Shown here in pieces: positions 8,929 to 26,886 of a stretch of DNA of 64,000 nucleotides; position 1 is the first letter of the stretch, and every line of letters begins with the position of its first letter. The DNA comes from an uncultured virus (IMG/VR IMGVR_UViG_2627853969_000002) (Duplodnaviria; Heunggongvirae; Uroviricota; Caudoviricetes). The notes under the pieces were generated by a model. That model did not search any database, was not told the origin of the DNA, and saw only the letters and a program-made list of their open reading frames with translations. The position numbers were made by a program, and so were the translations under genes. The stretch lies in the IMG/VR virus record IMGVR_UViG_2627853969_000002. The stretch is one strand, 5' to 3'.

Positions 8929-9137
8929 GGATGACCAATGATGAACGATTGAAGGGACGATAGCTGGAAGGCAGCACGCCACCATAGATGGTTCAAACGA
9001 AAAAGCCAATGACGATTTCAGTGGGTCAGTTTGAGGTTGTTGTTGACAACTTGTCGGCTGCATACTGTTCGACATGCTCGTCACTCCCCTTGGCGAACCC
9101 GAGACACTTGACTTCGGAACCCACCCTGCAGCTGTCG

Positions 9138-10061
9138 ATGACCCTGAAATTCAGGCATCCGATCACTGTCTATTCGCTGGTACCCGGTGGCGTCTCGCCA
9201 TTGGCCATGACCAGCGCGGTCATCCACCTGCTCGATCGGAACGTCGTCAGCTGGATCGGCCGGGAGCCTCGCGGCGAACCGGACAGCCCGCGCGACGCTG
9301 CCATGCGCTGGTCGCTGAAGTTCCTGGACAAGCCGACCCAGTCGATCAACCCGCTGCTGTGCGCGTTCGAGGGCAACAAGAGCCGGATCCCGACACTAGA
9401 CGAGTTCAAGGAAGAGTACCTGCGCTCCTGCGAGAAGATCGGCACGTACTTCCGCAGCGCCAGGATCGTCCGGCACCGGGACGAGGACTTCCTGCAGGTC
9501 TACCAGAATGTCGTCGACCTGCAGGCGCGACATCGCGCGGAGGTGGACTTCCTGTGCGAGATCGCCCCCGAGATCGCCGAACGACACCAGCGACGCGAAC
9601 TCGTCGCGATCCGGGACCGTATCCTCGACGCGGCACAACGCAGGTGCCTAGGCGACTCGCTTGTGCTCATTGCCAGCCTTTCCTGCTTATACGAGGGTGC
9701 GACCGAGGCAACCGCGTCGGCGGCCAGGGGTGTCATCAAGCCCCAACCGAGGTATGGTCCCATGGCCGCGCACAATGCGGTGTCGGACGTGCGCGCCGTC
9801 GAGATGCTTGCCGCGGGCGCGCCATTGAGACCGGAAACGCTTGGATTGTGCACAGCGGACCGCCGACTTGCGCAATTCTGGGATGCGCTGGGGATCACGT
9901 CCGGCACCTGGAGCGGCAACAACGCATGTACCGTTAGCCATCGGATGTCTTCGCGGCTGTTCCCGATCCTGACCGATGTCCAATGTCGTGAACTGGTAGC
10001 GATACTCGTTGAGTACGGGTTCGCCGATGCTGGCTCACGGCTGGGTTACTACCCGCGATAA
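9138..10061 (+). CDS. hypothetical protein with PIN-like acidic motifs
   Basis: LLDRNVV, HNAVSD and CTADRRL motifs; start codon uncertain. Confidence 0.65.
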   Translation: MTLKFRHPITVYSLVPGGVSPLAMTSAVIHLLDRNVVSWIGREPRGEPDSPRDAAMRWSLKFLDKPTQSINPLLCAFEGNKSRIPTLDEFKEEYLRSCEKIGTYFRSARIVRHRDEDFLQVYQNVVDLQARHRAEVDFLCEIAPEIAERHQRRELVAIRDRILDAAQRRCLGDSLVLIASLSCLYEGATEATASAARGVIKPQPRYGPMAAHNAVSDVRAVEMLAAGAPLRPETLGLCTADRRLAQFWDALGITSGTWSGNNACTVSHRMSSRLFPILTDVQCRELVAILVEYGFADAGSRLGYYPR

Positions 10062-10070
10062 ATCGATCTA

Positions 10071-10884
10071 GGGCGTGTTAACACATACGCAAGCCGTCGA
10101 CAACGAGCACGAAGCTGAGGAACCCAAGAAACATCACGTCCAACTTTTCGAAGCGGGTGAAGATGCGGCGATAGCCCTTCAAGCGACGGAACAGCCTTTC
10201 GACTTCATTCCTGCGCTTGTACATGGCCCGGTCGTATTCCCACGGTTCGACCCGGTTGGACTTTGGCGGCACCACGGGAATAAAACCCAGGTCCAGGGCG
10301 AGCTGCCGCGTTTCATCGCCTTCGTAGGCACGATCCATCAACAGGTGAACCGGTTGACTGACGGGCCCAAGGTGCTCCAGCAACACGCGTCCTGCAGGCG
10401 CATCGTGTGTGTTGCCCGGTGATAGGCCGAACGTTATGGCTGTCCGAGCATCTGCGGCAACCAGATGAACCTTGGTGTTCCATCCCCCACGGGACTTGCC
10501 GATGGATTGCGGACCGTTTTTTTTAGCGCCCCCGTACCATCCGAATGCACCTTGATGCTGGTGGAGTCCAGTGAAACTGCTTCGATCTTGATCCGTATCA
10601 ACTGGGACTTCTGCAATTCGGCGAACACCCGATCCAGCACACCCGCCTTGGCCCAGCGGTTCATTCGGGTGTAAATGGTGTGCCAATTACCGAAGCGCTT
10701 GGGCAATCCCCGCCATTTGCAACCGTGCTCAGCGACATACAGGATCGCATTGAGTACCTGAAAGTTGGTGATGCTGACATTGCCACGTTGCACCGGAAGA
10801 CAATGCTCAATTATCGTGAATTGCTCGCGCGTGATTTCCATCAGCCCTAGTCTATACGATCACAGCACTAGTGTTAACACACCC
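10071..10884 (-). mobile_element. IS5 family (IS427-like), 814 bp
   Basis: IRs GGGCGTGTTAACAC / GTGTTAACACACCC, flanked by TA on both sides. Confidence 0.9.
10078..10841 (-). CDS. IS5 transposase, orfA/orfB joined by frameshift
   Basis: orfA GCKWRGLP..FGNWHTIY; orfB DRAYE...RNEVERLF; A8 run at 10517-10524 on the minus strand. Confidence 0.9.
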
Positions 10885-10981
10885 TAATCTAATCTTCCTA
10901 AGTTTCCTTATCGCGTGCTTCATGCGCCGCTAGATCTAGAAAAGTGGACAGGCAGTCGATGCAAGAATGCGTAGAGATCAA

Positions 10982-13678
10982 CTAACGCACGGGCTTAAGT
11001 CCCTTTCGAGCCGCGAGGAGGTCGACGTCCTTGGAATTCACCTTGCGCTGAAGATTCTTCAACACCTTGCGCTGGGTTTCTGGCGTCCAGAAGATCCGCA
11101 AATGGCGCCGCGCACGTGTGACAGCAGTATAGAAGATACTGTGTGTCAAGTCGTCTTCGTTTGCGTCGGTCACCACGACCTTCACCGAGTCGTACTCTAA
11201 ACCTTGGGCCTTATGAATCGAGACCGCATAGGCAACCTGGAAGGGCACAACGTTGTGCGGCTTCTCGTCATCTTCGTCACTGGTATCATGGTTGGTCACG
11301 AAAAACCGCACGGTTGAATCGGCGACCCACTCCAGCTCGGTCCCCGCGACGTCGTGGGAGTCTAGCGGACGCTCCACTTGCACGTCGAAGCGTAGCGATT
11401 CTAGACCTTGCTGTATTGCTACGATACGTCCCTTGAGATTGTTGTACAAGATCGGACGAAAGCGTCCAGACTCGTTGAACAGAACTGGGTCACCCACCTT
11501 GTAGGTAGCCTCACGCCAGATCACTGCAGGATTCAGGTTTCCGCCTTGGAGGAAGCGATTGACGTTATTAATTCCGTATAGACCGTCATAATTCAGGCAA
11601 AGGATGATCTCATCATCGCTCGCACGCTCGAACAGGCTCTCGTCAAAAACGCTCGAATAGCCATTCCTGGCAATCACCTCATCGATGTCATCTTCGTTGT
11701 TCCGGATCTTATGCCAGAAGCTCAGCAGCGCCTTACTCTTCGCCCGGAATGGCGTGGTCAGCTCGAAGATCGCGCTCTTAGGCAGGAATTCACGGATGAT
11801 TGAAAACCAGTTGCCAAACTGAATAGACTCGATCTGATAGACGTCACCTACCAGCACTAGCAGCTTGAAAGATGTCTTCCTGAGCACATTCAGCAGATCT
11901 GTATTGCTTACGGTGCTGCACTCATCGATGACCAACAGGTCGTACTCGATATCCGGAGTGGTTCGGCGGATGTGTTTGCTGATCGTTCGAAACGTCGCGT
12001 GCTGGGCATTGACCTTGCGATCAAGGTTATCGATAGCTGGATTGGTATGGGCTAGGAAAAGTTTAGTCTTGTCGTTGAAGTAGTTGGCGATATGGTCAAC
12101 CATGGTCGACTTACCAGTGCCCGCAGCGCCATAGATCAAGGAGACCCTGGAATCGGCAAACAAGCGCTCGAGTGCATCCTTCTTGACCGGGTCATCGACG
12201 TGAGCGGGCGACTGCTGCAGCCACCCCGCCACTGCTTGACTGTAACCGGCTATGCCATCGAGTGCGATCGCTTGCAACTCTGAAACGATGGCAGCCGTCT
12301 CATCCTCGTAGCCGCGAATAAACACGTGGCCTTTGTCCTGCTCGAGTGTCCGATGCCCATGACTGTAGTAGAGGTTGCTGTTAAACACATCAATGAGTGC
12401 AGCGGTATCGCCAAAGTGGTTCAGTTCTTTGGCCGGGGTATAGAGCATTCCGTGCTGTTCGACATTGATGTGCAGTCGACGCGCCAGCATCTCGTGCGGC
12501 CGATCACCGTTCTCTAAGGCTTCGATAAGATCAGCGAAGCGTGGGTTGTGATCGCGAAGCGACGTGCAAAACGGCATGGTCTCAAAAGGGATGCAGCCGA
12601 AACTTGCTCTCAGGTTCGATAGTAGCCAGCACGGCTCTGTCGAGTACTGCGCCCGGATCACCGAATTTTTCAGACGCAGCATCAAATATCGTAGGAGATT
12701 GTGGCCGGCCAGCCGTGCGCGGACAATGCGACGAGCTTCGTCTAGAATCGGATAGATGGCGAGGCGGGTATCAACAGATTTTGGAACGAAGCGAGTGGCT
12801 TGATAGGCATTCTCATCCATGTCCATCAAGTCAAGTAGGTTTCCTGCTGTGTTCGTTAGCCACTGGTTGAGATGACGGAACTCGGCCGAGTTGCCCAACA
12901 CCTCGCTTCGAATGCCCAGCATCTTCCCGAGGTTGGCCAGTTCGCAGGGGCGAATGGATATGTCCCATGAACGGATAAGCGTGATGGGCATCGTCTGGTT
13001 GAGTACGCTGATCGCGTCGCGTTGCAGTACCAAATAAGCGGAGTAGTTATCAGTCAGGTCGATGTCAGTGAACGCAATGATGCGATCAAACTTGCTCACC
13101 CGGTCCACTGCTCGGGAGAAGGTCACCTCGTAGTAGACGCTCCACTCGACGAAGAAGGGGCGGACCTTGTGTATGTAATACCGCGCACCGTGTTCGCGGT
13201 CCATGCGCGTACCGCTAGCTGCCTGGATGCGCTGGGCGATCTTCTGGTGGTACTCCCGCAACGAGGGATCCAAGTCGACAGGAAACGACTCCAAGTTATC
13301 CAGTACGTCCATCGCGCAGGTGACCCTTACCAGGCTTCGCAAACGATACATGTACTCGTAGTACTTGAGCATCAGCCGCTCAGAGGCATCCCCATCGAAT
13401 GTGTAATGCGAGCTACTGGCCCGGAGTAAGCGATGGAAGTCGGCAAGGAATTTTAGCTGCCCCTGACTGCGGATGTACTCCAGCGCTGGCTTGATCGCAT
13501 CAAAACTGAACTCTGCGTCATTAGCGCCTTGATGAAGGCGCACCATGACACCTTCGATCAAGTTGCGCAGCTGCGCCAGTACATTTTGAGACAACAACTG
13601 GCGTTGCTCGCTCAACGCACCAATGTTTTTGCAAATTGCTGTACTAGCGCTTCCTATTTGCTCTTCAACCGTTGCCAT
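10982..13678 (-). CDS. SF1 (RecD-like) helicase with long N-terminal extension
   Basis: GAAGTGKST, VIDECS, LVGDVYQ, SIHKAQGLEYD, YTAVTRAR. Confidence 0.9.
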   Translation of the reverse strand: MATVEEQIGSASTAICKNIGALSEQRQLLSQNVLAQLRNLIEGVMVRLHQGANDAEFSFDAIKPALEYIRSQGQLKFLADFHRLLRASSSHYTFDGDASERLMLKYYEYMYRLRSLVRVTCAMDVLDNLESFPVDLDPSLREYHQKIAQRIQAASGTRMDREHGARYYIHKVRPFFVEWSVYYEVTFSRAVDRVSKFDRIIAFTDIDLTDNYSAYLVLQRDAISVLNQTMPITLIRSWDISIRPCELANLGKMLGIRSEVLGNSAEFRHLNQWLTNTAGNLLDLMDMDENAYQATRFVPKSVDTRLAIYPILDEARRIVRARLAGHNLLRYLMLRLKNSVIRAQYSTEPCWLLSNLRASFGCIPFETMPFCTSLRDHNPRFADLIEALENGDRPHEMLARRLHINVEQHGMLYTPAKELNHFGDTAALIDVFNSNLYYSHGHRTLEQDKGHVFIRGYEDETAAIVSELQAIALDGIAGYSQAVAGWLQQSPAHVDDPVKKDALERLFADSRVSLIYGAAGTGKSTMVDHIANYFNDKTKLFLAHTNPAIDNLDRKVNAQHATFRTISKHIRRTTPDIEYDLLVIDECSTVSNTDLLNVLRKTSFKLLVLVGDVYQIESIQFGNWFSIIREFLPKSAIFELTTPFRAKSKALLSFWHKIRNNEDDIDEVIARNGYSSVFDESLFERASDDEIILCLNYDGLYGINNVNRFLQGGNLNPAVIWREATYKVGDPVLFNESGRFRPILYNNLKGRIVAIQQGLESLRFDVQVERPLDSHDVAGTELEWVADSTVRFFVTNHDTSDEDDEKPHNVVPFQVAYAVSIHKAQGLEYDSVKVVVTDANEDDLTHSIFYTAVTRARRHLRIFWTPETQRKVLKNLQRKVNSKDVDLLAARKGLKPVR

Positions 13679-13747
13679 TTACGGCCCTCGAAATATACAC
13701 GGCAAAATCCATCCGAAACTGCTACAATATAATCCAAACTCACATTC

Positions 13748-13821
13748 TGAACCGCCCCGGCTTTGATGCCCACTTGAAGTTCGTCCAACTTAAGGGGGCA
13801 GTTCAATCCCGGGGCGGTTCA
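13748..13821. mobile_element. 74-bp miniature IS3-family (IS51-group-like) remnant
   Basis: Perfect 13-bp IRs TGAACCGCCCCGG / CCGGGGCGGTTCA with no transposase. Confidence 0.7.
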
Positions 13822-14003
13822 CGCTATTTTAATTGACAGCGGTTATCGCACAAAACCTTGGTGCAATTCTTCGGAAAAAACACTCAGAATAGTCAAACCT
13901 GGCTCGTGATCGCCCCTGCTTACACAGCAGGCATCACTAAACCAACAGGCTGACCGTAGACCCGATCCTATCGCAATCATCAAGCGATTGCAGTGCCATC
14001 GTT

Positions 14004-14321
14004 TCAGCCTTCACCCTCATGGCGTTGTACATAGAAATCTGCCGCCGCCTCGATCAAGTAGGTATAGCGCTTCACCATCCCCTGCCAGGCAAGCGCCTCC
14101 ACTTGGTGTTCGGCGTGGATATCCTCCGGCACCTCGCTGACCTCATCGATCAATTTTGGGACTTCGTGATTCCACCAACGCAGCATCAGGTCTGGCCGCT
14201 GATGCGTGCGAATCAGCGACTCCACCAACGACTGCATCGCCGCAAATTGCCGCACCATGCGGATGCGCTGGCCTTCTAGGAAGTGCGTGCGCTCCTGTTG
14301 CTCGGCCAGCGCCTCTTCCAA
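14004..14321 (-). CDS. hypothetical protein
   Basis: ORF downstream of virD4 on the same strand; start uncertain. Confidence 0.5.
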   Translation of the reverse strand: MEEALAEQQERTHFLEGQRIRMVRQFAAMQSLVESLIRTHQRPDLMLRWWNHEVPKLIDEVSEVPEDIHAEHQVEALAWQGMVKRYTYLIEAAADFYVQRHEGEG

Positions 14322-14375
14322 GGCATCCAGCCGCTGACTGAGGTCAGCAGGCCCTCGACCGAAAATCTCATGCGA

Positions 14376-16070
14376 TTACGCTCCGCCCAGCGCGAGCCGG
14401 GGCACACTCGGCGCCGGCAGCAACAGCTTTTTGAAGTAGCTGTCCTTGTAGTAAAAAATCTTGTTCGCTAGGATCGGATAGCCAATCCCCTCAATGAACA
14501 CGATGGCTTTGTCCGGCGCCAGCCCCTTCACCTCATCCGGATTCATCAGCGGACGCCGATCCAGCACCTCGGTATAGCTGTGGCTGTTGCCTTGACCGTA
14601 GGATTGCGTGCGCTGCCGACGACGCACCGTGGTCTCGCCCAGCATCTTCGAATATTCCTCGGCATCGCGTTGCTCTCGCGGAGTGAACACGATCCGCACG
14701 CCGAGATTGGTGATCAAGCCGCGCGCTGTGTCGGCGCCATAGACCGATTCCAACTGCGCAATCGACTGGATCACGATCACGATACGGATGCCATAGCCGG
14801 CCACCCACCCCACAGCCACCGGGACGATCTCCACCCGGCCCAGCGCCGTGAACTCATCGAGCATGAACATGCACTGGTATTTCAGTTCTGGGTTGTGCTC
14901 GGGCAACTCGCGGCCATTGAGTTTGATCGCCTGCTCAAAGAACAGGTTCAACACGCCTTTGGCTTCGATCAGCTTGGCCGGGCTGACGCCCACGTAGATG
15001 GACTGGATGGTCTTGCGCAACTTGCCCAGGTCGAAATCGTTGTCGCTGGTGGCTGCGTCCACAATCGGGTTGCTGAAAATGTTCAGCGGTGCTAGCGCCG
15101 TTTCGATGGCGGAGGTGAACGTCTCAGGAGCCAGGCCGACCAGGTTGTTCAGACCGGTCCGCGCATGCGTGCCGAGCGTGGGCTGGCTGAGTAGCTCGCC
15201 CAGGTAGTGCTGCATCGACTGACCGGGTTTGAGGTGTGCGCCGGCGAGCAGCCGATAGACGCCCCCAAGTGTGGGCAAGCCCGTTTCAAATCCAGTCTCC
15301 TTCTTGGAAACATAATCGTCAAACAGGCATTCGCAGGCAGCCACAAAGGTCTTGCGGCCCATTGCCGGCCAGAACGGATTCTCGCCGCTCATCTCCTTGT
15401 ACAGCGTGGCGGCGATGGCAACGATGTCGCCGTTACGATGGTTCGGGTCCAGGCGCACATAGCCCAGCGGATTCCAACGGTGCGTACTACCGTCGTCGCT
15501 AAACGGATCGAACAGATACACCTGGCCGTATTTGGCGCGCTGGCCAGCGGTTTTTTCCCATGCCTCGCGCTTGACGTCCAGGATCACCGCCGACTCCAGC
15601 CATGCCAGCAAATTCGGAATGACCACGCTCACGCCCTTGCCGCCACGGGTACTGGCCGCCAACAACAAGTGCTTGGACTGGATGCGGATGAAGCGGCGAC
15701 CGAAGCGGCAGGCAATCAATCCACGCGGATCGTCCTTCAGCACATCGTGCCGGGACAGATCGCCGCTACGCGCCCAGCGCGCATTGCCATACAACTCCCG
15801 CGCCTTCGTCCGCAGCATGGCATACACCATGATGAGGTAGAGCATGACAGGCAAGCCGAAGCCGCAGATACCCGACAGCTTGATTTTCATGGCATACGGA
15901 TGCCACGCGGGTTGATCGACCACCTGCCAATAGCGCCAATAGGTCAGTAGTTGGACCTGTGCGTGTTCTCCGAGCAGAGTCAGCACCAAAAAGCCAGACA
16001 GATACAGCCCAGCGATGGCAACGGGTAGCAACGCGATGACAGCGGTAATGGCTTTGGTACGCGAATTCAT
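14376..16070 (-). CDS. virD4: type IV coupling protein (VirD4/TraG)
   Basis: Two N-terminal TM segments, YGNARWA, ASTRGGKGVSVVIPNLL, LDEFTALG, QSIAQLESVYG. Confidence 0.93.
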   Translation of the reverse strand: MNSRTKAITAVIALLPVAIAGLYLSGFLVLTLLGEHAQVQLLTYWRYWQVVDQPAWHPYAMKIKLSGICGFGLPVMLYLIMVYAMLRTKARELYGNARWARSGDLSRHDVLKDDPRGLIACRFGRRFIRIQSKHLLLAASTRGGKGVSVVIPNLLAWLESAVILDVKREAWEKTAGQRAKYGQVYLFDPFSDDGSTHRWNPLGYVRLDPNHRNGDIVAIAATLYKEMSGENPFWPAMGRKTFVAACECLFDDYVSKKETGFETGLPTLGGVYRLLAGAHLKPGQSMQHYLGELLSQPTLGTHARTGLNNLVGLAPETFTSAIETALAPLNIFSNPIVDAATSDNDFDLGKLRKTIQSIYVGVSPAKLIEAKGVLNLFFEQAIKLNGRELPEHNPELKYQCMFMLDEFTALGRVEIVPVAVGWVAGYGIRIVIVIQSIAQLESVYGADTARGLITNLGVRIVFTPREQRDAEEYSKMLGETTVRRRQRTQSYGQGNSHSYTEVLDRRPLMNPDEVKGLAPDKAIVFIEGIGYPILANKIFYYKDSYFKKLLLPAPSVPRLALGGA

Positions 16071-16173
16071 CGGGGGACTCTTCCTTGGGGAATCGGTAGA
16101 AATCGGGTGTGAGAAATGCGGCTTGGCGCATGCTCGTCCATGCGGTGTTGCCTGTATAGCCTACGATTGCCGC

Positions 16174-18987
16174 TTACAGCTTCATGACCATGCCCTGCCC
16201 TTGCATCTGCGCCGCGCGCTGGGCCTGCATCGCCTGCTCGGCGAGCCGCTGCTGTTCCACGCTCTGCAATTGCTGGCTGGCCTGGGCCACGTCCGGCGCT
16301 TGCGTCAGTTGCGGTGCATTGACCTGCGCCCATAGCTGTCCGTGGGATTTCGCCAGGTAATTCGGCGTCTGAGTCGTATGACCTTGCGGCAGGCCCAGGT
16401 AGATCTTGTCAACTTCGGTATGGCCAAACTTGCGCGTCTCCACGACGACTTGTGCCGCATGGCGGTCCAACTGCTCCGCATCCGGCACGGGACGACCCCA
16501 GCGTTCATGCGCATCGGCGATGGCATCGCGCGCCTGTTCGAACAGCGCATGGCTCGGATGCGCCGGATGGCGCATATCCTCGGGGGTGATCGCCACGGGG
16601 GCGATGGCGCGGCTTGGCGGCGCCGGTGCATGGGTCGCTTCGCGTGCCCGCCAGGTGGCGGCATGCTGCTCGGGCGATTGCGCTAACGCCTGCTGCGGAT
16701 CGATCCGCAGCACCTTGCTTTTCTCGTACACCGAGAAGGGATTTTCGTAGGCCAGCAATTGGCCTTCGTGTTGTTTGAAGCCCTTGATGCTGTGTTCGAA
16801 ATTCTTATCGATGCCCAGGGTATTGGTGAACGCGGCAGCCAGTCGTTCCTGCTGCTCCGGGCCGTAGGGTAATTTGTCACCATTCCTGGGCACGTCGTGG
16901 GACTGCGCGAGGGCGTCCTTGAACAGGGTATAGCGTGGGTGGAGCGGGTGGTCCGGGTGACGGAAGTCTTGGAGATGCTCATCCGAACGCGGTGTGCGCG
17001 TCGGCGGGGTGTACAACATCGCCTCGCCCGCTTGGCGCTGTTCGTGTTGATGCGACCGGGTGTCTTGGCTGTGGCGCTGTTCGTGTTCGCGTTGCTGCGC
17101 ATCCATGGTTTGACGGTGCAACTGGGCATGTTGCTGCGCGAGGCGGTGTTGCTGCTCGCGCGCTGCCTGCGCTTGCTGTTCCTGCTGCTGCAGTTGCGCA
17201 ATGCGGGCCTGTTCCTGCATGTCCACGCTGGCCGGTTTTTCGTGGACCGGGGCGCTGTGAGCGGGTGGCGGCTGTGTCTGCCGGTGTGCTTGCGCCAAGT
17301 GCGCCGCCTGCTGCTGCGCCTGCTGGATGTGTTCCTGGCGCTGCTGGATGGCGTGGTCCTCCTGCAGGCCCGTGTGCCTGTCCATGGCCGGCGGCGGTGT
17401 GGACGCGGCAGCGGATGAGGATGAAGAAGAGGAAGACGTGTCCGCGTTCGTCGCTGTGGGAGGGATGGACGCGGCTGGTACGCTGTGCTGGAACAACTGA
17501 CCCGGATGCGTCAGCGTGTCGTAGGCTTGCCCGGCTGCGTGCTCGACCACGTCGATGCCGGGCGAGACGATGTATTTGATCCCGTCGTATGTTTGCCCAG
17601 CGGCCTGTCCGGCGGATGAATGTGCGGCGGCCTGCGCGCCATGATAGAGATCGACCGCCTGATTCACGACGTTGGCCCCTGCCGCCTGGACATCAGGGTC
17701 GTGGATGACCCGCTGCGCCGCGTCGGCAACATAGTGCGCACTCTGTTCGACGGCGTGCTTGGCCGACTCGAATTGATCGCCGACGAAGTGGCCCAAACCA
17801 TCGGCAGCGCGCCCGTGCAAGTGCGCCGCTAAGCTTGCCGCCTGACCGACCAGCGGTGCCATGGGACTCAAGGCAAGGCCAGCCACACCCGCACGCTGTG
17901 CATCCGAGGCCATGCGCTCGTCCATGTCGTGTACCGCATGGCCCAACGTGCGCGCGGCATCGCCGGTATCGTGCAGACTGCGTGCTGCACTCTGCACATG
18001 CGCGTTATGTTCGATGGCATCGCGCAGCGACGAGTCCCAGTTCAACGCCAGGTATTCGTTCACCTGCCGCTGGATATCCGCTGGCAGGTGGGTTTGGTCA
18101 GGGTGCGCGCGGAGTTGGCGCAGCGCCTGGGACAATTCGGCACGTTCGTGAGCAACCTCCCAGGTGAAATGCTCGAAGGCACTCTGGTGGTCCGTGTAGC
18201 GTTGCGACGCTTCGCTGAAACGCTGCGGGGCCAGGACGTTGTCCGGACTTTGGCTGCCGAAGTGCTGGGCAGCGCCGTGGTCCCCCCATCGCGTTGCTAT
18301 CAGCACATTCGGAGGCGGTGCGCCGACGGGCGCATCCAGATACCGGCCAGCGCGCAGACTCTGCACATCGTCATGACTGGCCAACGACACCATGCTGCCG
18401 ACGTGAGGACTGGCCGCGCTCACCAGATCGTTGGCCATGCGGTAATTGGTGACTTGGCAGCCAGGCTGCGGGGTTCCATCGGTCAGCCCCCTGGCGCCGT
18501 AGGCGTTGTAGGTGGAACCGGCCAGGCCGTATTTGGCCGCCTCGATCTGCGCCAGCGCGCCGCCGAGGGAGTGGCCGGCGACGGTCACGTGGTCTTTGGG
18601 GATACCTCGTGCAGCGGCCTTGGCGAGCATCTGTGCGGTGAACGCATCGGCGGCGGCTTTTTGCGGATTGACGGCGTCGCGCACCATCGTGGCATCGACG
18701 GCGATGTCCTGGAGGGTGGTGAGCGCATGACCCGCTTTTTCCGCCTTTGTCTCGCCGGTAAATAAATCCGTGTCGGTGCCACGGTAGGCGATGATGATGC
18801 GGTGTGGTACTTCCACGCTTCGATACGCTGTTGCGTGGAAACCGGTTATAGGATCGTTCGCGTAGCCGAAGACGGTATAGTCTGTACCTTCTAGAGGTAT
18901 GTGTTTGGGACTGTCGATGTCGCTCAGCGAACGGTTGAAATAAGAATCAATAGCCGCATCGGCGCGTGCTTGATCAGTAGGCTTCAT
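16174..18987 (-). CDS. lipase/phospholipase T4SS effector with two XVIPCD-like C-terminal domains
   Basis: IAYRGT and GHSLGG lipase motifs; HPDHPLH and HPAHPSHALFEQ starts of XVIPCD-like domains; Gln-rich tail. Confidence 0.85.
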   Translation of the reverse strand: MKPTDQARADAAIDSYFNRSLSDIDSPKHIPLEGTDYTVFGYANDPITGFHATAYRSVEVPHRIIIAYRGTDTDLFTGETKAEKAGHALTTLQDIAVDATMVRDAVNPQKAAADAFTAQMLAKAAARGIPKDHVTVAGHSLGGALAQIEAAKYGLAGSTYNAYGARGLTDGTPQPGCQVTNYRMANDLVSAASPHVGSMVSLASHDDVQSLRAGRYLDAPVGAPPPNVLIATRWGDHGAAQHFGSQSPDNVLAPQRFSEASQRYTDHQSAFEHFTWEVAHERAELSQALRQLRAHPDQTHLPADIQRQVNEYLALNWDSSLRDAIEHNAHVQSAARSLHDTGDAARTLGHAVHDMDERMASDAQRAGVAGLALSPMAPLVGQAASLAAHLHGRAADGLGHFVGDQFESAKHAVEQSAHYVADAAQRVIHDPDVQAAGANVVNQAVDLYHGAQAAAHSSAGQAAGQTYDGIKYIVSPGIDVVEHAAGQAYDTLTHPGQLFQHSVPAASIPPTATNADTSSSSSSSSAAASTPPPAMDRHTGLQEDHAIQQRQEHIQQAQQQAAHLAQAHRQTQPPPAHSAPVHEKPASVDMQEQARIAQLQQQEQQAQAAREQQHRLAQQHAQLHRQTMDAQQREHEQRHSQDTRSHQHEQRQAGEAMLYTPPTRTPRSDEHLQDFRHPDHPLHPRYTLFKDALAQSHDVPRNGDKLPYGPEQQERLAAAFTNTLGIDKNFEHSIKGFKQHEGQLLAYENPFSVYEKSKVLRIDPQQALAQSPEQHAATWRAREATHAPAPPSRAIAPVAITPEDMRHPAHPSHALFEQARDAIADAHERWGRPVPDAEQLDRHAAQVVVETRKFGHTEVDKIYLGLPQGHTTQTPNYLAKSHGQLWAQVNAPQLTQAPDVAQASQQLQSVEQQRLAEQAMQAQRAAQMQGQGMVMKL

Positions 18988-19598
18988 TGCTTGGCTTCCT
19001 TGACAGCGATGGTGACTGGGAAGTGAGCATCTGGGTGCTGAATTACCTCATCGTCTTCTCCAGTGAGAGGTTCAGCACCATACTCAACGAGATGCTGATC
19101 CCCATATGAGCTCTTCTTGAAGTAGAAGGTCTGCTTCTTCTGGTCAGCATTCAGAAGCGTATTCAACAGACGCCCCCAACCGAACCTAACTCCCTTGGCA
19201 ATCGCCACAATGCCAGCACCGGTCGCATCCCAGTGGCACACGCCAAGCTTGAAGTAGTCCTCATCCAGCAATGCGTCGCGATAAAAATATCCCTTCCACG
19301 TGTGATCGTCCACCTGTGTCATGGGAACATCGAGCCCAGTACCAGGCACTTGCCGCACACCAACGAACGGCATCATCGGCACGCATTTCGCATTGATGAC
19401 GTCATACCCGATATACGCCTTGATCGAATCCCACGGCCCCGGCGCATGGGAGGTGGCAATCACTTCGTAACGTTTGACCGGGTGCGGATTGAGGTGCCCG
19501 GTGGCGCCGTCATTGCCGACATCGATGCCTTTGGAGCAGCCCGCAGCGGTCAGGGCCAGCGGCATGATGGCGGTGGCGGCCAGGTGGTGCAGTTTCAT
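18984..19598 (-). CDS. lipoprotein, putative cognate immunity protein
   Basis: MKLHHLAATAIMPLALTAAGC lipobox; 4-bp overlap with the effector start. Confidence 0.8.
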   Translation of the reverse strand: MKLHHLAATAIMPLALTAAGCSKGIDVGNDGATGHLNPHPVKRYEVIATSHAPGPWDSIKAYIGYDVINAKCVPMMPFVGVRQVPGTGLDVPMTQVDDHTWKGYFYRDALLDEDYFKLGVCHWDATGAGIVAIAKGVRFGWGRLLNTLLNADQKKQTFYFKKSSYGDQHLVEYGAEPLTGEDDEVIQHPDAHFPVTIAVKEAKQ

Positions 19599-20192
19599 CG
19601 GGTCGTCCTCGGATAGGGGCGCGGCGGATGCGGCTGTCGATTGGGACGGCCACGGCGCGGGTTTGCGCTTGGGTTGCACTGGCAATCCGCCAGGTGGCAG
19701 CGGCCCCAGTTCGGCGCGCACCCGCGCATTGATGATGGCCATATCGCGCAGCAGCTGCAGATCGTGCAGCGGATCGCGCACCTTGAGTTTGCGCGGGCGA
19801 TAGGGATTGTCGCTGTGATCTTCGTGATCGTCGGTGTCCTGGCTCATCGCGCGAGACCTCGGCCTTGGAGAAGGGGGGATGCCATCAGGACGGATCGTAT
19901 TTTCATGCGGTCAGTCCAGATCGGTCGCCCAGGTGCGTGACCGGCACGGCGGTCAGGATAAGCGTGGGCGCGGCATGGGACGGCGTGGCAACAGGAGATC
20001 GCACAGCCATGGTTTCACCTGTGGGAAGGTAGAGAGACAGCCTACTACCCAGGGCGTGATCGCGATAGCGCGGTGCCGGGTTGACGCTGCTCAAGCGCCA
20101 CGCGGGATGAGCGGCCATCATGGCCCCGTGTCCGGCATGCATAGTCTCTCGTGACTGCTAAGCCCTGTATATCAGGAGTCTGGCTGTCGTTT

Positions 20193-20210
20193 TGTAAGAC
20201 TTTTCCTACA
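20193..20210. promoter_or_regulatory. imperfect palindrome TGTAAG-N6-CCTACA
   Basis: Lies upstream of the effector operon; resembles NarL/LuxR (GacA-type) boxes. Confidence 0.3.
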
Positions 20211-20221
20211 GCGCCAGCGGT

Positions 20222-20707
20222 TCAATGGCCTTGTTGGCCTACCGCGATTGCCTCACGTTGCGCCAGCCAAGACGCCGACAGCTTGCCGCGTAGCAATTGA
20301 CTAACGCCCACCTCGAGGTTCCCCGAGACGAGGGCCTCGACCACATCCGGGGCCAGTTGCGCCAGTCGACTCATCCTGCTGGCCTGGCCGAGGTCGATGC
20401 CTTCGGCCTGCGCGATCTCGGTCATGGAATCGAACCGTCCCTGGTCCAGCAAACGTTGCCAATGGTGCGCCAAGCCGAGCGCGCGCATCAACGCGGTGTC
20501 CTGCGGCACCTTGCGCACCGGTCGCTCACGACAGGCCTGCTCGCCGAACTCCTGAGGCGCATCCAGCGGCGTGATGACCTGCTGCTTGCCACCCCTGCGT
20601 ATCAACGTCCAGGGCAGGAAGGTTTCCATCTGCACACCCCCTGCTGGCATCGGGATCTGATACGTCACCGGATCACCTGTGACGCGCACGCGATGTCGTT
20701 TGCTCAT
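20222..20707 (-). CDS. recombinase-associated HTH protein
   Basis: LGLAHHWQRLL...IAQAEG..LAPD; paralogous to 20704-21075. Confidence 0.75.
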   Translation of the reverse strand: MSKRHRVRVTGDPVTYQIPMPAGGVQMETFLPWTLIRRGGKQQVITPLDAPQEFGEQACRERPVRKVPQDTALMRALGLAHHWQRLLDQGRFDSMTEIAQAEGIDLGQASRMSRLAQLAPDVVEALVSGNLEVGVSQLLRGKLSASWLAQREAIAVGQQGH

Positions 20708-21075
20708 CGCAGCTCCTCGAAACTGGCCATGAGCTGACGCTGGGCGTACCAGTCGACCATCAAGCGATTGCGTTGGAACCACATCAGGGTCAACCGCGGT
20801 GGCTGCTTGCCCGCCATGCACTGCTCCACGATGTCAGGGGCCAGCAGCGTCATGCGCAGCGATTCGTTGACCACTGATTGGTCCAGGTCTTCGGCGCGCG
20901 CGATAGCCGATCCGCTCGGCATGGCCCCGATATCCAGCAGGTGCTGCCAGTAGAATGCACGCGCCAGCCCTTCTATCAGCGTGACGTCGTGGACACTGCC
21001 CTGCTCCGCCGCCGCGCGCTGGATACCACGGCGGCTAAATGTCAGCGGTACAAAGGTTTCCATCGATGCGTCCAT
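20704..21075 (-). CDS. recombinase-associated HTH protein
   Basis: LARAFYWQHLL...IARAE..LAPD; overlaps both neighbours. Confidence 0.75.
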   Translation of the reverse strand: MDASMETFVPLTFSRRGIQRAAAEQGSVHDVTLIEGLARAFYWQHLLDIGAMPSGSAIARAEDLDQSVVNESLRMTLLAPDIVEQCMAGKQPPRLTLMWFQRNRLMVDWYAQRQLMASFEELR

Positions 21076-22463
21076 CAAGCCTCGACCTCCAGCAATTCGG
21101 CACCGATGCTGTTGGGTGCAAACTCCTCGATCAACGCACTCCAGCCAATCTCCCGCCACCTCACCTTGATCCCGCGCACCTCGCCGGCATGGACGAGGTC
21201 GATGCGCTCGATCATCAAATTGGCGATACGGTGGCGTTCGACCGGGAACAGTTGATCCCACACCTCGTTGAGCTGCTTCATCGCCATCACGGTGGTGGGC
21301 TCGTCGATCTGGGCACCGGTGTGTTGGATGTGCCGCACTACCGCTGCCACCGACTCCGGGCTGGCCAGCACCGTGCGGATCTGGGCCACCACCGCCGCCT
21401 CAATCTCCGGCGCAGGCAGGCGCTCGCAGCTTTTGCCCGACGCGCCGAACCGTAATTCGGACTTGGACAAGTAGTAGTGGTATTTACGCCCCTGCTTGCA
21501 CGAGTAGGTCGGATACATCCGCTCCCCGGAGGGCGCATACAGCAGGCCGCGTAGCAACGCATCAGTGCGTGACCGGGTCTTGGTCTCCACGGCTCGGCGA
21601 TGCCCGTCCTTGGCCAGCACCTCATGGACCCGCCCCCACAACCCTGGATCGATGATGGCGTCATGCACACCGGTGTACCAACTGCCCTTGTGTGACAACT
21701 CGCCGAGGTAGATGCGGTTGCGCAGCAGTTTGTGCAGGTATTTCTTGTCGATGCGTGCGCCTACCCGCTCCTGCCCCTCTTGCGTCTTCCACGCCTTGGT
21801 GGTGATGCCCTCCTCGGCCAGGTTGGCGGCGATCTGGGTGGGTGAGCCGATGGTCAGCATCTGCGCGAAGATCCGGCGCACCACGGCGGCCTCGGTTTCG
21901 TTGATCACAAGCTTGCGGTGCTCGACGTCGTAACCCAAGGGCGGCACGCCGCCCATCCACATCCCCTTGCGCTTGGAGGCAGCGATCTTGTCGCGGATAC
22001 GCTCGCCGGTGACCTCGCGCTCGAACTGGGCGAAGGACAGCAGGACGTTGAGCATCAGCCGTCCCATCGAGGTGGTCGTATTGAACTGCTGCGTGACCGA
22101 CACGAAGGACACGCCGTGGCGCTCGAACACCTCGACCATCTTGGAGAAGTCGGCCAGGCTGCGCGTCAAACGATCGATCTTGTAGACCACCACAATGTCG
22201 ATCTGACCACGCTCAATGTCGGCTATCAGACGCTTCAGACCCGGTCGATCTGTGTTCCCACCGGAAAACCCAGGATCGTCGTAGTCGTCGGCCACCCGCA
22301 TCCATCCCTCGGCGCGCTGGCTGACCACATAGGCGTGGCCAGCCTCCTTCTGCGCATCGATGGAGTTGAACTCCTGATCCAGACGCTCGTCCGACGAGAC
22401 CCGGCAGTAGACGGCACAACGTTTGCGCGCTTTGGTGGAAGCCATCTGCGTGAGATCGTTCAT
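21075..22463 (-). CDS. large serine recombinase (integrase)
   Basis: YCRVSS catalytic Ser, DRLTRS, FAQFERE, GGVPPLGY recombinase domain. Confidence 0.95.
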   Translation of the reverse strand: MNDLTQMASTKARKRCAVYCRVSSDERLDQEFNSIDAQKEAGHAYVVSQRAEGWMRVADDYDDPGFSGGNTDRPGLKRLIADIERGQIDIVVVYKIDRLTRSLADFSKMVEVFERHGVSFVSVTQQFNTTTSMGRLMLNVLLSFAQFEREVTGERIRDKIAASKRKGMWMGGVPPLGYDVEHRKLVINETEAAVVRRIFAQMLTIGSPTQIAANLAEEGITTKAWKTQEGQERVGARIDKKYLHKLLRNRIYLGELSHKGSWYTGVHDAIIDPGLWGRVHEVLAKDGHRRAVETKTRSRTDALLRGLLYAPSGERMYPTYSCKQGRKYHYYLSKSELRFGASGKSCERLPAPEIEAAVVAQIRTVLASPESVAAVVRHIQHTGAQIDEPTTVMAMKQLNEVWDQLFPVERHRIANLMIERIDLVHAGEVRGIKVRWREIGWSALIEEFAPNSIGAELLEVEA

Positions 22464-22912
22464 CGTGCACCGCCTTTGCCTTTCAGGCCAAAGAACAGCG
22501 GGCCAGACCAATGCGTGCCAGTGATGCGACGGGCAACGGCCGTCAGGCTCTTGAACGTGCTGCCCTCGTACTCGAACAGGCCCTGTGCCGTGACCCGGAC
22601 CGTGTGTTCCCGCTCCCCCCATTCGCGCAGCAACACCGTGCCAGGCGCAAAGGTGATCTCCTCTGCTCGTGCCCGCAGCTTGATCTTGGAGTGCTTGGCA
22701 CCGATGGCCTCCAGGCGCTGGCGCGTGGTGTGGGATAGACCGCCAAAGGCGTGTTCCTGGATCTTGTAGGCGATGCGCGATTCAATGAAGCCACGGTTGG
22801 GGTAACCGGGACGGCTGGTGAAATAGCGATCCCACACCGACCAAAGATCGGCGATAGGCAGACTGGACAGCGCGGCGATCTGGGCAGCGACAGAGGCGTG
22901 TTGGTCGTTCAT
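22460..22912 (-). CDS. DUF2924-like protein
   Basis: PGTVLLREW...FKSLTAVARRITGTHWSGPLFFGL, upstream of the LSR. Confidence 0.85.
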   Translation of the reverse strand: MNDQHASVAAQIAALSSLPIADLWSVWDRYFTSRPGYPNRGFIESRIAYKIQEHAFGGLSHTTRQRLEAIGAKHSKIKLRARAEEITFAPGTVLLREWGEREHTVRVTAQGLFEYEGSTFKSLTAVARRITGTHWSGPLFFGLKGKGGAR

Positions 22913-23100
22913 GAAAACTCCTGCGGATAGGGAGTTGTATAGACGCTCTGGTCGGGCACAAAGCCAAGTCCACTCTCGGCACTGGGTCGCACTTCCGGAC
23001 ACAAAGTACGGACGATTGCCGCTGCAAGGATGGTGGTGATCTCCTGAGCACGCGCGCTGGCGCTCAGCGTCGCAGCAGGTGCAAGTTCGAGGTGCTTCAT
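22909..23100 (-). CDS. small hypothetical protein
   Basis: RBS GGAG; coupled to DUF2924; MKHLELAP start also present in copy A near 2328. Confidence 0.55.
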   Translation of the reverse strand: MKHLELAPAATLSASARAQEITTILAAAIVRTLCPEVRPSAESGLGFVPDQSVYTTPYPQEFS

Positions 23101-23273
23101 GACGGCTCCGGGGAATAGCAACCGTCGAGGATGGTGCGCCCAAACTTCCGAAGTGGATGGCAACACAGGGTAATGCGGCATACTCGATGGCGCGCCTGCA
23201 AAGAGTTAACAACGGCTCAGGTGAGCGGTAGGATCATCTCCGCGTTAACCAAAAACGGAATTAGGTTATCGCC

Positions 23274-23552
23274 ATGACATTTGGCGCATTCATCCGCAAG
23301 AAGCGCAAGGAAAAAGGCATTCAAATGAATGACCTCGCGCGGCAACTTGCGATCTCTCCCGCTTACTGGTCGCGGATCGAACGCGACATGGAAAAGCCGC
23401 CCAAGGACGAACTGATCCAGAAGGCAGCGGACATCTTGGACTTGCACTCCGACGACGCCTTCGTGGAAGCCAGCCGTCTTCCGCCCGACATTCGCAACGA
23501 TGTGGGGAATCTGGTACGGATGTACCGCAAGCGCCGCAAAAAGGACCAGTAA
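23274..23552 (+). CDS. XRE-family HTH regulator
   Basis: Paralogue of 2515-2793. Confidence 0.9.
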   Translation: MTFGAFIRKKRKEKGIQMNDLARQLAISPAYWSRIERDMEKPPKDELIQKAADILDLHSDDAFVEASRLPPDIRNDVGNLVRMYRKRRKKDQ

Positions 23553-23675
23553 GTGTCGCCTGCTGCCGATACGCCAGGCCAAGCGCTGGCGCTGATCACT
23601 GTATCCGATGAACGCGGCTACCCGGTGCGGGTAGAGCGAGACGACTTTCTTCATCAGGAGGCCAGAATGCACTAA
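23553..23675 (+). CDS. 40-aa small ORF (GTG start)
   Basis: Paralogue of 2794-2916 with several synonymous changes. Confidence 0.5.
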   Translation: MSPAADTPGQALALITVSDERGYPVRVERDDFLHQEARMH

Positions 23676-23774
23676 CGCGGCGGCACCCCCGCTGCTGACT
23701 CCGCGCCGGCATTATTTTCACTTTCAAATTAACAGTTCGCGCAATCGTGTAATTTTCAGAAATGGACTTTACCC

Positions 23775-25196
23775 ATGTCAGTAGATCCCTCCATTGATGG
23801 ACAGCACCCCATCCCCCCTTCTGAGAACCAGCCTGCCAAGCAGGATCGCAAATGCCAATCGGATGATGCAGGTCCGCTCATCCTGCCGGACATGCAGCAC
23901 TTCGTTAGCTTATTGCGCAAGGTCAAGCATCCGCGCCAGGCATTACTGCTGATCGAGCGCGCCAGTGACTCCCCATTACCCGAAACGGCGACACTGATCG
24001 ACAGGGGGGCGCTATCGGTTGAATCGCGCAAGGCGATGTTCCATCGGGTCGCAACGCTCGAGGCCACGGTCCGGCGTCGCATCGAACACGCCGCCGAGCG
24101 CATCATGCTGCTGGACGATGAGTACGGCGCTCAAGCCGTCCAGTCGCTGCTCGACGAACACGGCGACGCTGAGGTCCTTGCCATGCCCAGCGACCGCCAC
24201 AGTCGCGCGCTGTACTTGTACCTGTTGCAGGACTTCCTGGCCAACGGAGCCAAGCCTGATCCACGCTTTGACCATGCCGAACGCTTGCAGGCAATGCACC
24301 GGCAATGGAAGAGCGACAACTACTCCAGCCACTACCTTGGCCCCAGGGGCGTCGTGCCGCAGATCGGCCCCGATGTCGAGGACGCCTTGCGCAGGCGCAT
24401 CACCGCGCTGTTCCCGCAGGTGCCGGTCGACCAGATCCTCATCGAGCAATTCACCCAGCGTGATCTTGCGCACGCCGCCCCCAGCAGCGGACAAGATGCA
24501 GATGACGCCGACTCGGTCCTCCTGCACACCCTCACCGCCACGTTCAATGGCACGACCACCCACTACCAGCAGGTCAAGAACGGCGAGGTGGAAGACCATG
24601 AAGTGCCCGTTGCGATGTCGGCCTGTTTTTCATGGGAGCCGCAGACCGGCGCACTCAGCGTGCATTGCGAGGACCGTGAAATTCGCCGCGAGTTAGCCAC
24701 TGTCTTCCGCGATGTTGCGCTCGCCTGCAATGACGGCATTGCCGACATCCCCCTGCGCAAATTCGACATCTTTGGCTTTTCCACGCCCGAGATGCTCGCG
24801 CGCTTGGAACACGAGCGTGTGGCCGGAGTGGAAAAAATCACGATCCTCCAACTCAAGGTCGAGCACCTGTTCGAGCAGATGACGTCCGACGAAGCCAACG
24901 AACGCGACATCGTGCAGCACCTGTCCAGCACACTGCTCATCGGTCGGGATCGGCGCGACACCCGTAACATTTATGAGGTCGCCAACGACGACTACGGCAT
25001 TGACGATCTGACCAGGTACACCGTGACACAAGTCAAACTCGTGTTTCGGATGGCTAAACAGCCGCACCGCAAGGCGCATCACCTCGCCGTCCAGATCACC
25101 GCACCGAACGGTCTGAACGACAAGAGCAAGACCGAGGATGACCGCAAGCGCGTCCTGCAGCAGCTTGCTCGCATCGGCGTGCTTCGCGAGGGTTGA
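23775..25196 (+). CDS. prophage hypothetical protein (473 aa)
   Basis: Paralogue of 3016-4443. Confidence 0.85.
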   Translation: MSVDPSIDGQHPIPPSENQPAKQDRKCQSDDAGPLILPDMQHFVSLLRKVKHPRQALLLIERASDSPLPETATLIDRGALSVESRKAMFHRVATLEATVRRRIEHAAERIMLLDDEYGAQAVQSLLDEHGDAEVLAMPSDRHSRALYLYLLQDFLANGAKPDPRFDHAERLQAMHRQWKSDNYSSHYLGPRGVVPQIGPDVEDALRRRITALFPQVPVDQILIEQFTQRDLAHAAPSSGQDADDADSVLLHTLTATFNGTTTHYQQVKNGEVEDHEVPVAMSACFSWEPQTGALSVHCEDREIRRELATVFRDVALACNDGIADIPLRKFDIFGFSTPEMLARLEHERVAGVEKITILQLKVEHLFEQMTSDEANERDIVQHLSSTLLIGRDRRDTRNIYEVANDDYGIDDLTRYTVTQVKLVFRMAKQPHRKAHHLAVQITAPNGLNDKSKTEDDRKRVLQQLARIGVLREG

Positions 25197-25209
25197 AGGG
25201 ACGCAGGGG

Positions 25210-26145: not shown

Positions 26146-26454
26146 ACGCGCCCATAAATCGCGCCATACCTGAACCATCCAACCGTCGTCCCTCGGTGAT
26201 GCCTTCGGTGACAAGGCAGAGCGTGAGGGCTTGCCCTGGCTGTTCAAGCGCAGCAGATACCGGCTGCTGCGCAAAAACCATAAATCCGACCATAAATCGA
26301 ACCATACATGAACCATCCACCAGTCCCTCGGTGATGCCTTCGGTGACAAGGCAGAGCGTGAGGGCGTGCCCTGGCTGATCAAGCGCGGCAGATACCGGTT
26401 ACGGCACAAAAACCATAAATCCGACCATAAATCCGACCATACACGAACCATAAA
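26048..26454 (+). repeat. three tandem ~135-bp units with CCATAAA mini-repeats
   Basis: Units start at about 26048, 26185 and 26319. Confidence 0.85.
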
Positions 26455-26503
26455 TTCGTGTGGAAACTTCGCTGCGCCCATTTCACCCAAGAGGCGCATC
26501 GAC

Positions 26504-26767: not shown

Positions 26768-26886
26768 GCAAGACGGCGATGCGCGACCAGACACCGGCAT
26801 CGCCGCGATGTGCGTTCGGTACCGCACACCCCCTGGACCCTGACACGCCGTCCCTTTCCCATCCCTTCGATTCGGAGCTAACACGC

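Follow-up and report, generated by a model that had tools for sequence, protein, structure and literature searches.

A recurring toxin, immunity and VirD4 cassette as a probable exchangeable cartridge of the Xanthomonadales killing type IV secretion system

Which secretion machine does a VirD4 coupling protein feed when no virB gene lies near it? The question is raised by a 64,000-nt stretch of the uncultured virus record IMGVR_UViG_2627853969_000002 (the window; all coordinates are window positions), in which a VirD4-type protein is encoded next to a lipase-type protein and a lipoprotein-like protein. An earlier note on this DNA had read these genes as a mobile plug-in that loads its toxin, through its own coupling protein, onto a type IV secretion system (T4SS) encoded elsewhere, either the Xanthomonadales killing system (X-T4SS) of the host or a conjugative system; it had named a VirD4 phylogeny and a search for virB loci as checks, and a remnant of a deleted conjugation locus as the contrary case. 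Our results indicate that the locus is probably an exchangeable X-T4SS toxin/immunity cartridge, whose linked coupling protein acts in trans on a chromosomal X-T4SS. On the best reading of the sequence, the cassette encodes a putative immunity protein, membrane-anchored or a lipoprotein, a lipase-type effector predicted to act in the periplasm, VirD4, and a small fourth protein, and the receiving machine is best taken to be the X-T4SS of the host itself, which lacks virD4, rather than a conjugative system.

The genes lie in the order candidate immunity gene, effector, VirD4 and fourth gene, all on the minus strand. The features referred to below are as follows.

13969..19860, minus strand: whole cassette, the stretch common to copies sitting in other genomic contexts (blastn)
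18984..19847, minus strand: candidate immunity gene, an open reading frame (ORF) of 287 aa with a lipoprotein-like signal from Met84 (19598) and no family match
16174..18987, minus strand: effector of X-T4SS type (X-Tfe), 937 aa (Pfam, PDB sequence search, 7-copy alignment)
16618..16974, minus strand: first, degenerate XVIPCD-like unit of the effector, aa 672-790 (PF20410, E=0.0042, 18.1 bits)
16264..16572, minus strand: second XVIPCD of the effector, aa 806-908 (PF20410, 33.6 bits, E=6.2e-8), with a Gln-rich tail to 16177
14376..16070, minus strand: intact VirD4-type coupling protein, 564 aa (Pfam, motifs, AlphaFold2 (AF2) model, dN/dS, tree)
15051..15446, minus strand: all-alpha domain of VirD4, aa ~209-340 (in the AF2 model only helices lie between strands 183-187 and 356-361)
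15171..15353, minus strand: hypervariable patch inside the all-alpha domain, aa ~240-300
14004..14371, minus strand: fourth gene, 122 aa in other copies, family not found; its ATG is out of frame in the window

The ends of the cassette come from blastn comparison of the window with loci from the two nearest genomes, X. albilineans CFBP2523 (G001) and Xanthomonas sp. GPE 39 (G002). Locus L026 aligns to the window at 13986-19859 only, and the match of other copies stops downstream at 13969 (L027), 14002 (L018), 13977 (L022) and 13986 (L025) and upstream at 19859-19860 (L026, L069 and L070); that is, similarity between copies ends right after the fourth gene (13969-14002) and at 19859-19860. Cassette copies with 87-99% identity are present in X. 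albilineans CFBP2523, Xanthomonas sp. GPE 39, and X. axonopodis pv. vasculorum. The co-oriented lipoprotein-like gene, the GHSLGG lipase-type protein with XVIPCD and VirD4 all lie on the minus strand where the earlier note had placed them, and the prophage recombinase module, a serine recombinase (21075-22622) and a DUF2924 gene (22460-23212), does adjoin them. The absence of VirB and relaxase genes was borne out as well, with no VirB, mating pair formation (Mpf) or relaxase family among the 61 window ORFs (29 + 32) scanned. The three-gene operon of the note, however, has to give way to four genes, the fourth at 14004-14371 with a start that is damaged in the window. This gene had been missed, together with the degenerate one of the two XVIPCDs and a conserved 83-codon extension of the first gene.

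The effector consists of an N-terminal class-3-lipase-like domain with the GHSLGG motif, a helical middle, a polyserine linker (a run of 8 Ser), a Gln/His-rich stretch, two XVIPCDs, and a Gln-rich tail. A PDB sequence search gave a weak match (E=0.095) to the type VI secretion system lipase effector 7ubz. With the PF20410 (XVIPCD) cut-off at 24.9 bits, the second XVIPCD is a clear match; the degenerate unit scores lower, covers profile positions 1-100 of 101, and matches the second unit by BLASTP (E=1e-6). The final 30 residues are rich in Q, A and M, and a Gln-rich tail after the XVIPCD is a named feature of X-Tfes (PMC8740702; this and the other papers are cited here from the portions of their texts available).

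The first gene has the position known for X-T4SS immunity (X-Tfi) genes, which lie directly upstream of, and overlap, the effector gene (PMC7777525): its stop overlaps the effector start by 4 nt (18984-18987). No Pfam, NCBIfam or PADLOC family matched it. The start at 19598 given by the earlier note does head a lipoprotein-like signal, a hydrophobic stretch followed by a lipobox-like AAGC (..LTAAGC), but it is Met84 of an ORF that opens at 19847. The 83-codon N-terminal extension (MSQDTDDH...) is in frame in six of seven copies, with dN of 0.014-0.029 against dS of 0.07-0.18. Because these codons are conserved in frame, the protein may start at 19847, and because they precede the lipobox-like signal, it may be a bitopic membrane protein instead of a lipoprotein. 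Its AF2 model is beta-rich with a pLDDT of 65.7 (9-row alignment), and Foldseek of this model against PDB gave no match at E<=0.001, the best being a C2-like domain at 0.028 with a TM score of 0.25.

Comparison of the copies reveals which part of the cassette is constant and which is replaced. The C-terminal ~400 aa, containing the polyserine, the Gln/His-rich stretch, both XVIPCDs and the tail, are alike in all seven effectors, whereas the N-terminal domain is a class-3 lipase in four, a Tle1-like phospholipase in L029, and missing in L070. The copies bearing a lipase retain the lipoprotein family of the window (P0003) at 46-92% identity, whereas the protein encoded upstream of the Tle1-like effector in L029 is unrelated to the first-gene product of the window. 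As judged from these alignments, toxin domain and upstream gene change together, as expected of toxin-immunity pairs, and the comparison shows that a predicted toxin and immunity part is exchanged while the delivery part behind it (polyserine linker, two XVIPCDs, and VirD4) stays constant. Locus L070 (2.072-2.092 Mb of GPE 39) is of another kind. Lipase fragments are arrayed there, every one accompanied by a lipoprotein gene (46-74% identity to that of the window), together with a 441-aa ORF that retains only the part from polyserine to XVIPCD, and there is no VirD4. The locus has the look of a reserve of orphaned toxin and immunity pieces.

The VirD4 of the window matches PF02534 (E=4.9e-94), TraG-D_C (2.7e-28) and TrwB_AAD_bind (9.6e-28), and has a Walker A motif (GGKGV at residue 143), a Walker B motif (MFMLDE at 401), and two N-terminal hydrophobic segments. 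Its AF2 model (41-row alignment, mean pLDDT 87.6) combines a pair of long helices at the N-terminus with an alpha/beta nucleotide-binding domain and a helices-only block at ~209-340; this all-alpha stretch does not align with Cag5 (8dol). The protein is under purifying selection, with dN/dS of 0.06-0.19 in all ten pairs of the five full copies. In X. citri, the XVIPCD binds the all-alpha domain of VirD4 (PMC8740702), and it is in this domain that the copies vary most: the patch holds 29 variable columns in 65, against 48 in 504 elsewhere (77 of 569 overall; Fisher p=2.7e-11). In nine of ten pairs the patch has dN of 0.15-0.26 and dN/dS of 0.18-0.51, compared with dN/dS of 0.06-0.13 for the remaining protein; the patches of the window and L026 are identical. 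However, dS in the patch is also 2-3 times that of the remainder, and a mosaic origin of the patch is therefore, on these data, as likely as diversifying selection.

The fourth gene begins 7 nt past the VirD4 stop in six copies (L026, L027, L029, L018, L022 and L025), and its dN/dS is 0.13-0.46 in all 15 pairs. Twelve homologues were found, all in Xanthomonas (albilineans, MUS 060, GPE 39, fragariae, and axonopodis pv. vasculorum). No Pfam family matched it, and the best Atlas score, 0.82, is in the range expected by chance.

As to its ancestry, the nearest relatives of the window VirD4 outside the X. albilineans clade are chromosomal, from Rhodanobacter and Pseudoxanthomonas (62%) and Frateuria (~51%), and the canonical Xanthomonas VirD4 (P0085) is ~45% identical. 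The best plasmid match among at least 5000 plasmid records is 42.6% identical and belongs to a conjugative operon running from virB2 to virB11 and virD4. A tree of type IV coupling proteins (T4CPs; 77 rows, IQ-TREE, LG+G4, support as ultrafast bootstrap/SH-aLRT) gathers all Xanthomonadales VirD4s in one group of 66 rows (96/99), apart from outsiders comprising two plasmid T4CPs, three Rickettsiales rows, three TraG-like rows, and three other T4SS-linked rows. Inside the group, the canonical virB-linked clade (100/100) has a sister clade (95/92) that contains the window VirD4 (100/99); the clade of the latter has one virB-linked member, L107 (G025). A third clade is formed by a second VirD4 type of the albilineans genomes. 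Because the outsiders are few and the model simple, the clades are more secure than the root of the group. The phylogeny thus comes out on the side of the earlier note, and shows by tree placement that the window VirD4 belongs to the X-T4SS-type group of the Xanthomonadales. Some VirD4 relatives are longer, 770-920 aa with a C-terminal extension (P0032, P0033, P0037, P0083, and L101:7623-9929).

The complement of VirD4 and virB genes was read in the two nearest genomes rather than in that of the window. G001 has one full copy of the window-type VirD4 (93%) and many partial ones at contig ends (C13, C30 and others); in G002 a fragment (aa 1-81) is present besides three full copies, at 99, 93 and 91%. 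With three VirD4s of the second type, ~37-41% identical to that of the window, G002 has six complete VirD4s in total. Of its five XVIPCD hits, four are immediately upstream of a VirD4, or of the VirD4 fragment, of a cassette, and the pattern is the same in G001. Yet there is only one VirB4 and one VirB10 hit in G002, in a single cluster virB8-9-10-11-1-3-4, with a 194-aa ORF without family where a 2012 paper, discussed below, places virB7; the arrangement in G001 is the same. No virD4 was found beside the virB cluster in G001 or G002, and the canonical place at the head of the virB operon is vacant. As neither genome yielded a virB-linked VirD4, those of the cassettes may be the only coupling proteins of the system there. 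This bears out one part of the earlier note, in that the sole virB cluster is encoded elsewhere and without virD4, but a conjugative system as receiver is unsupported. Likewise, the plug-in idea stands as a discrete recurring unit with an intact VirD4 under selection and no relaxase, but the cassette VirD4s are not extras on a complete system. Like the cassette VirD4s, the second type (L065, L066 and L067 in G002; L023 in G001) has no linkage to virB; the genes after it encode peptidoglycan-binding, GH19 or LprI-like proteins, in which Pfam gives no XVIPCD even at E<=5.

Part of this is already in print. Pieretti et al. (2012) described 12 copies of a '5-kb gene cluster' in X. albilineans GPE PC73, with a GxSxG hydrolase in each, a polyserine linker in nine, a virD4-like gene in five, and phage or Rhs sequences flanking nine of the 12; they also noted a virB cluster without virD4 and suggested trans-complementation (PMC3542200). 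The window has a GHSLGG hydrolase, polyserine and virD4, its cassette recurs at many chromosomal places, and prophage and Rhs genes are nearby. By these features the window locus is one copy of that cluster, and the repeat, together with the trans-complementation idea, has thus been known since 2012. That account, in the portions available, reports no conserved domain, calls the proteins hypothetical, makes no tie to XVIPCD, X-Tfe or immunity, and proposes a role in the use of sap substrates (PMC3542200). In the literature searched, with subscription journals outside its scope, the '5-kb gene cluster' is named only in the 2012 paper, and wording on orphan, additional or multiple VirD4s does not occur; nor was a link of the albilineans cluster to X-Tfes found there, including the available portions of PMC6536674 and PMC7777525. 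New here are the reading as an X-Tfe/X-Tfi cartridge, the fourth gene, the tandem XVIPCD, the toxin swap, the variable all-alpha patch, and the linkage of VirD4 and toxin across the order.

This last point comes from a search of 301 Xanthomonadales genomes with the window VirD4 (P0001) and PF03135 (VirB4). There were 64 VirD4 matches listed, and exclusion of two G001 fragments left 62 rows, 37 within 25 kb of a VirB4 hit and 25 not. At 36% identity or more, 35 were linked and 20 unlinked, two of the latter in G001 and 18 elsewhere. Sixteen of these 18 loci were examined (G192 and G068 excluded); two of them are no more than 7 kb from a contig end and may be linked to virB beyond it. A toxin-like gene stands beside VirD4 in 14 of the 16, and neighbours in seven have a Pfam XVIPCD, either with a Tle1-like domain (L100, L102, L104, L137, L138 and L139) or alone (L101). 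Peptidoglycan-binding or glucosaminidase proteins were found at L103, L105, L136, L141, L143 and L144, Tle1-like together with PG_binding at L140, and no toxin-like neighbour at L106 and L142. The enrichment of toxins beside VirD4 is judged only against few XVIPCD genes per genome (5 hits in G002 and 8 in G001). The usual order at unlinked loci outside the albilineans clade is VirD4, small gene, effector. Besides these, G282 and G129 have an X-T4SS-type VirD4 and no VirB4 hit at E<=1e-10, and in G098 the only VirD4 is on another contig than VirB4 and adjoins a beta-lactamase-family gene.

How would such a cassette work? Beyond gene content, we infer every step from the X. citri system. The cassette VirD4 would sit in the inner membrane and, like its X. 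citri counterpart, use its all-alpha domain to bind the XVIPCD of the neighbouring lipase. It would then dock in trans on the chromosomal VirB machine and hand over the lipase, which would be delivered into contacted rival bacteria to attack their membranes from the periplasmic side, while the product of the upstream gene would protect the producer. The cassette could spread, and swap its toxin, by recombination at its constant 3' part and conserved 5' leader, which would act as handles. A bolder and so far tentative proposal, which we regard as possible without favouring it, is that coupling is dedicated to the effector: the killing T4SS in many Xanthomonadales would be fed by VirD4 paralogues, each inherited with its own toxin and immunity gene and tuned by the patch to the neighbouring XVIPCD. 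A toxin could in this way be gained as a cartridge ready for loading, with no need to compete for a resident coupling protein, and the machine of the albilineans clade would have lost a virD4 of its own and be left with the VirD4s of the cartridges.

Among known systems, the X-T4SS of Xanthomonas citri and Stenotrophomonas maltophilia is the closest, with the XVIPCD and Gln-rich tail, the overlapping upstream immunity gene, a candidate one in the cassette, and toxins of the lipase/phospholipase kind, to which the effector of the cassette is predicted to belong (PMC8740702, PMC7777525). Its VirD4 likewise has two transmembrane helices and nucleotide-binding and all-alpha domains, and the cassette VirD4 groups with the canonical ones. 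In those species, however, a single VirD4, encoded at the head of the virB operon, is used by some dozen effectors at scattered places, whereas the VirD4 of the cassette is unlinked to virB, multi-copy and tied to one effector with two XVIPCDs, and is followed by the fourth gene. The 5-kb cluster has the same SHD/GxSxG hydrolase, linker, virD4-like gene in some copies, many sites and phage/Rhs neighbours. MobB of CloDF13 (MOBC1) is another channel-less mobile unit whose own T4CP borrows a resident T4SS channel (PMC7431656). In that case the substrate is plasmid relaxase-DNA, whereas here it would be a chromosomal protein toxin, with no relaxase; in sequence, the two coupling proteins share the T4CP family. 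Rhs and contact-dependent inhibition (CDI) polymorphic toxins combine a constant delivery part with an exchangeable toxin/immunity part, and orphan toxin-immunity modules occur. The cassette resembles them in this division, in the truncated orphan arrays of L070 and in its Rhs/phage neighbours, but its polarity is reversed, with the toxin N-terminal and the immunity gene upstream, and its constant part includes an ATPase gene.

The surroundings of the cassette bear on how it spreads. The serine recombinase and DUF2924 pair upstream of it (21075-23212) is 78% identical in DNA to the 'site specific recombinase large and small subunit' genes of Acidithiobacillus phage AcaML1, whose host is a distant one. 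From the cassette through this prophage end (13969-26099), the window and L027 are syntenic. The L029 cassette follows a tRNA-Lys and a tyrosine integrase, and the direct repeats found there are short two-copy matches; the L021 copy has an integrase nearby. At L026, in contrast, the cassette has DUF3348/DUF802 genes on one side and a gene for a TonB receptor on the other, and the flanking ORFs scanned include no mobile-element gene.

Other parts of the window are listed here as neighbours only. Just downstream of the cassette, an 898-aa helicase (P0004; 10982-13678) is matched over its full length by PADLOC PDC-S53 (1301.7 bits, E=0). It was tried as a relaxase and rejected; since relaxase models match over the helicase half only and the PDC-S53 match is full-length, it is a candidate defence gene. 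The helicase belongs to a defence islet at 7695-13678, with a lower G+C content of 0.52-0.54, just outside the cassette. The islet also includes a transposase of the IS5 family, spread over two ORFs (10078-10841), and, together with a BglII-like endonuclease (7695-8288), an MT-A70/type II methylase (8254-9084). Contact-dependent toxin DNA on the minus strand (34700-50060) interrupts a prophage after the small terminase gene. It encodes a 1798-aa Rhs protein (44182-49578) with Kelch/Big_5/CarboxypepD_reg N-terminal domains, two Rhs pieces (41758-43791 and 38944-39744) that repeat parts of it at 91-92%, an insertion sequence transposase (40718-41779) and a haemagglutinin-repeat fragment (35656-36282). 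Three segments of prophage early-region type (2307-6447, 23077-32313 and 50639-54683) are related to one another, 2307-6447 resembling 23077-27339 (91-92%) and 27250-32313 resembling 50639-54683 (93%); only the 50639-54683 segment continues into terminase, portal, protease and capsid genes.

Among the alternatives, the one that survives best concerns spread and not function. The cassette may not be mobile itself, but cargo at the integrase end of prophages and islands that was multiplied by homologous recombination; we consider this possible, if on the doubtful side. The synteny of the window and L027 through the prophage end, the place of L029 after tRNA-Lys and integrase, and the phage or Rhs flanks of nine of the 12 published copies (PMC3542200) agree with it, as do the 2-3 times higher dS of the patch, which suggests a mosaic origin, and the fact that no recombinase, transposase or terminal repeat of its own was found in the cassette. 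On the other side, L026 sits amid housekeeping-type genes with no phage gene or integrase among the ORFs scanned, the cassette itself has no match in the phage collection, and no repeat of the tRNA 3' part, as expected of an att site, was found for the L029 tRNA-Lys island within its 21.7-kb locus. On sequence comparison, the simplest account of the spread seems to be hitch-hiking on integrative elements together with homologous recombination through the constant parts.

A second alternative is that the cassette is a decaying repeat, in which the copies are leftovers of duplication, the X-T4SS does not work, and the VirD4 copies have no present role in secretion. We hold this to be improbable. 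Several points speak for it, some of which also weigh against an exchangeable cartridge. Truncated copies are many, including the VirD4 fragments in G001, the aa 1-81 piece in G002, and the lipase fragments and toxin-less XVIPCD ORF in L070. In the window, a one-base loss has put the ATG of the fourth gene out of frame, leaving a 105-aa ORF with a TTG start (14004-14321). The relatives may also have an incomplete VirB machine: the GPE PC73 cluster lacks virB5 (PMC3542200), and VirB6-like genes lie away from the virB cluster in G001 and G002. Deletion of virB4, virB5, virB8, virB10 or one virD4 in X. albilineans JG43 left virulence and motility unchanged, virB11 excepted (PMC11369208), although such phenotypes say nothing on bacterial killing. 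Other points bear on the exchangeable cartridge itself. The effector reaches 21.1 bits with Lipase_3, just below the cut-off of 22, and VirD4, at ~224 bits, is far below all named NCBIfam T4CP cut-offs (674-728). RNA-library contigs of a relative (at least 85% identity) span all 30 bins in each of 4 runs, but these contigs are short, come from multi-copy sequence of the relative and may include DNA carry-over, and thus show neither transcription of this copy nor an operon. Twelve RNA rows from 3 studies contain 7-25% of the words of the cassette. Separately, a scan of 13700-20400 gave no promoter site against 2.3 expected, and nine terminator-like sites against 4.8 expected, every one inside a gene. 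What speaks against decay is that full-length copies are under purifying selection (VirD4 0.06-0.19, fourth gene 0.13-0.46) with intact Walker motifs, and that the linkage of unlinked VirD4s to toxins also occurs in genera that have a virB-linked VirD4.

A third possibility, that the locus is the remnant of a deleted conjugative or integrative element in which VirD4 was a coupling protein for DNA transfer and the toxin pair an unrelated neighbour, appears very unlikely to us. The Pfam label of VirD4 is that of a conjugative DNA-transfer protein, and integrases lie near some copies (the serine recombinase in the window and L027, the tyrosine integrase and tRNA-Lys in L029, and L021). However, the scanned window ORFs include no relaxase or Mpf gene, the neighbouring helicase is of the PDC-S53 type, XVIPCD and VirD4 are paired at four of five XVIPCD loci in G002, and no mobile-element gene was seen in the L026 flanks. 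Moreover, the tree sets VirD4 inside the X-T4SS-type group and not with the sampled plasmid T4CPs, which counts against a conjugation-locus remnant, the case that the earlier note had set against itself. Least credible of all is the 2012 proposal of secreted or cell-bound hydrolases that use sugarcane sap substrates with a VirD4-like NTPase as power source (PMC3542200), since, although the GxSxG hydrolase and polyserine linker are there, all copies have XVIPCD units and a Gln-rich tail at their C-terminus, a hallmark of antibacterial X-T4SS effectors, the overlapping immunity-like gene changes with the toxin domain, and homologous cassettes occur in Xanthomonadales that are not from sugarcane.

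If the cassette is indeed an exchangeable X-T4SS cartridge, its meaning goes beyond this locus. Work on the X-T4SS assumes a single VirD4 that recognises all XVIPCD effectors, whereas here one VirB machine faces up to six VirD4 genes, each beside toxin-like genes, so that the substrate choice of a secretion system could be modular and horizontally exchangeable. The cassettes would also be natural sets of related pairs of all-alpha domain and XVIPCD in which the recognition code between them may be read. For X. albilineans, this reading would give a function to a repeat of a sugarcane pathogen that has been unexplained since 2012, and it would explain the lack of a plant phenotype in virB/virD4 mutants, because the system would target bacteria.

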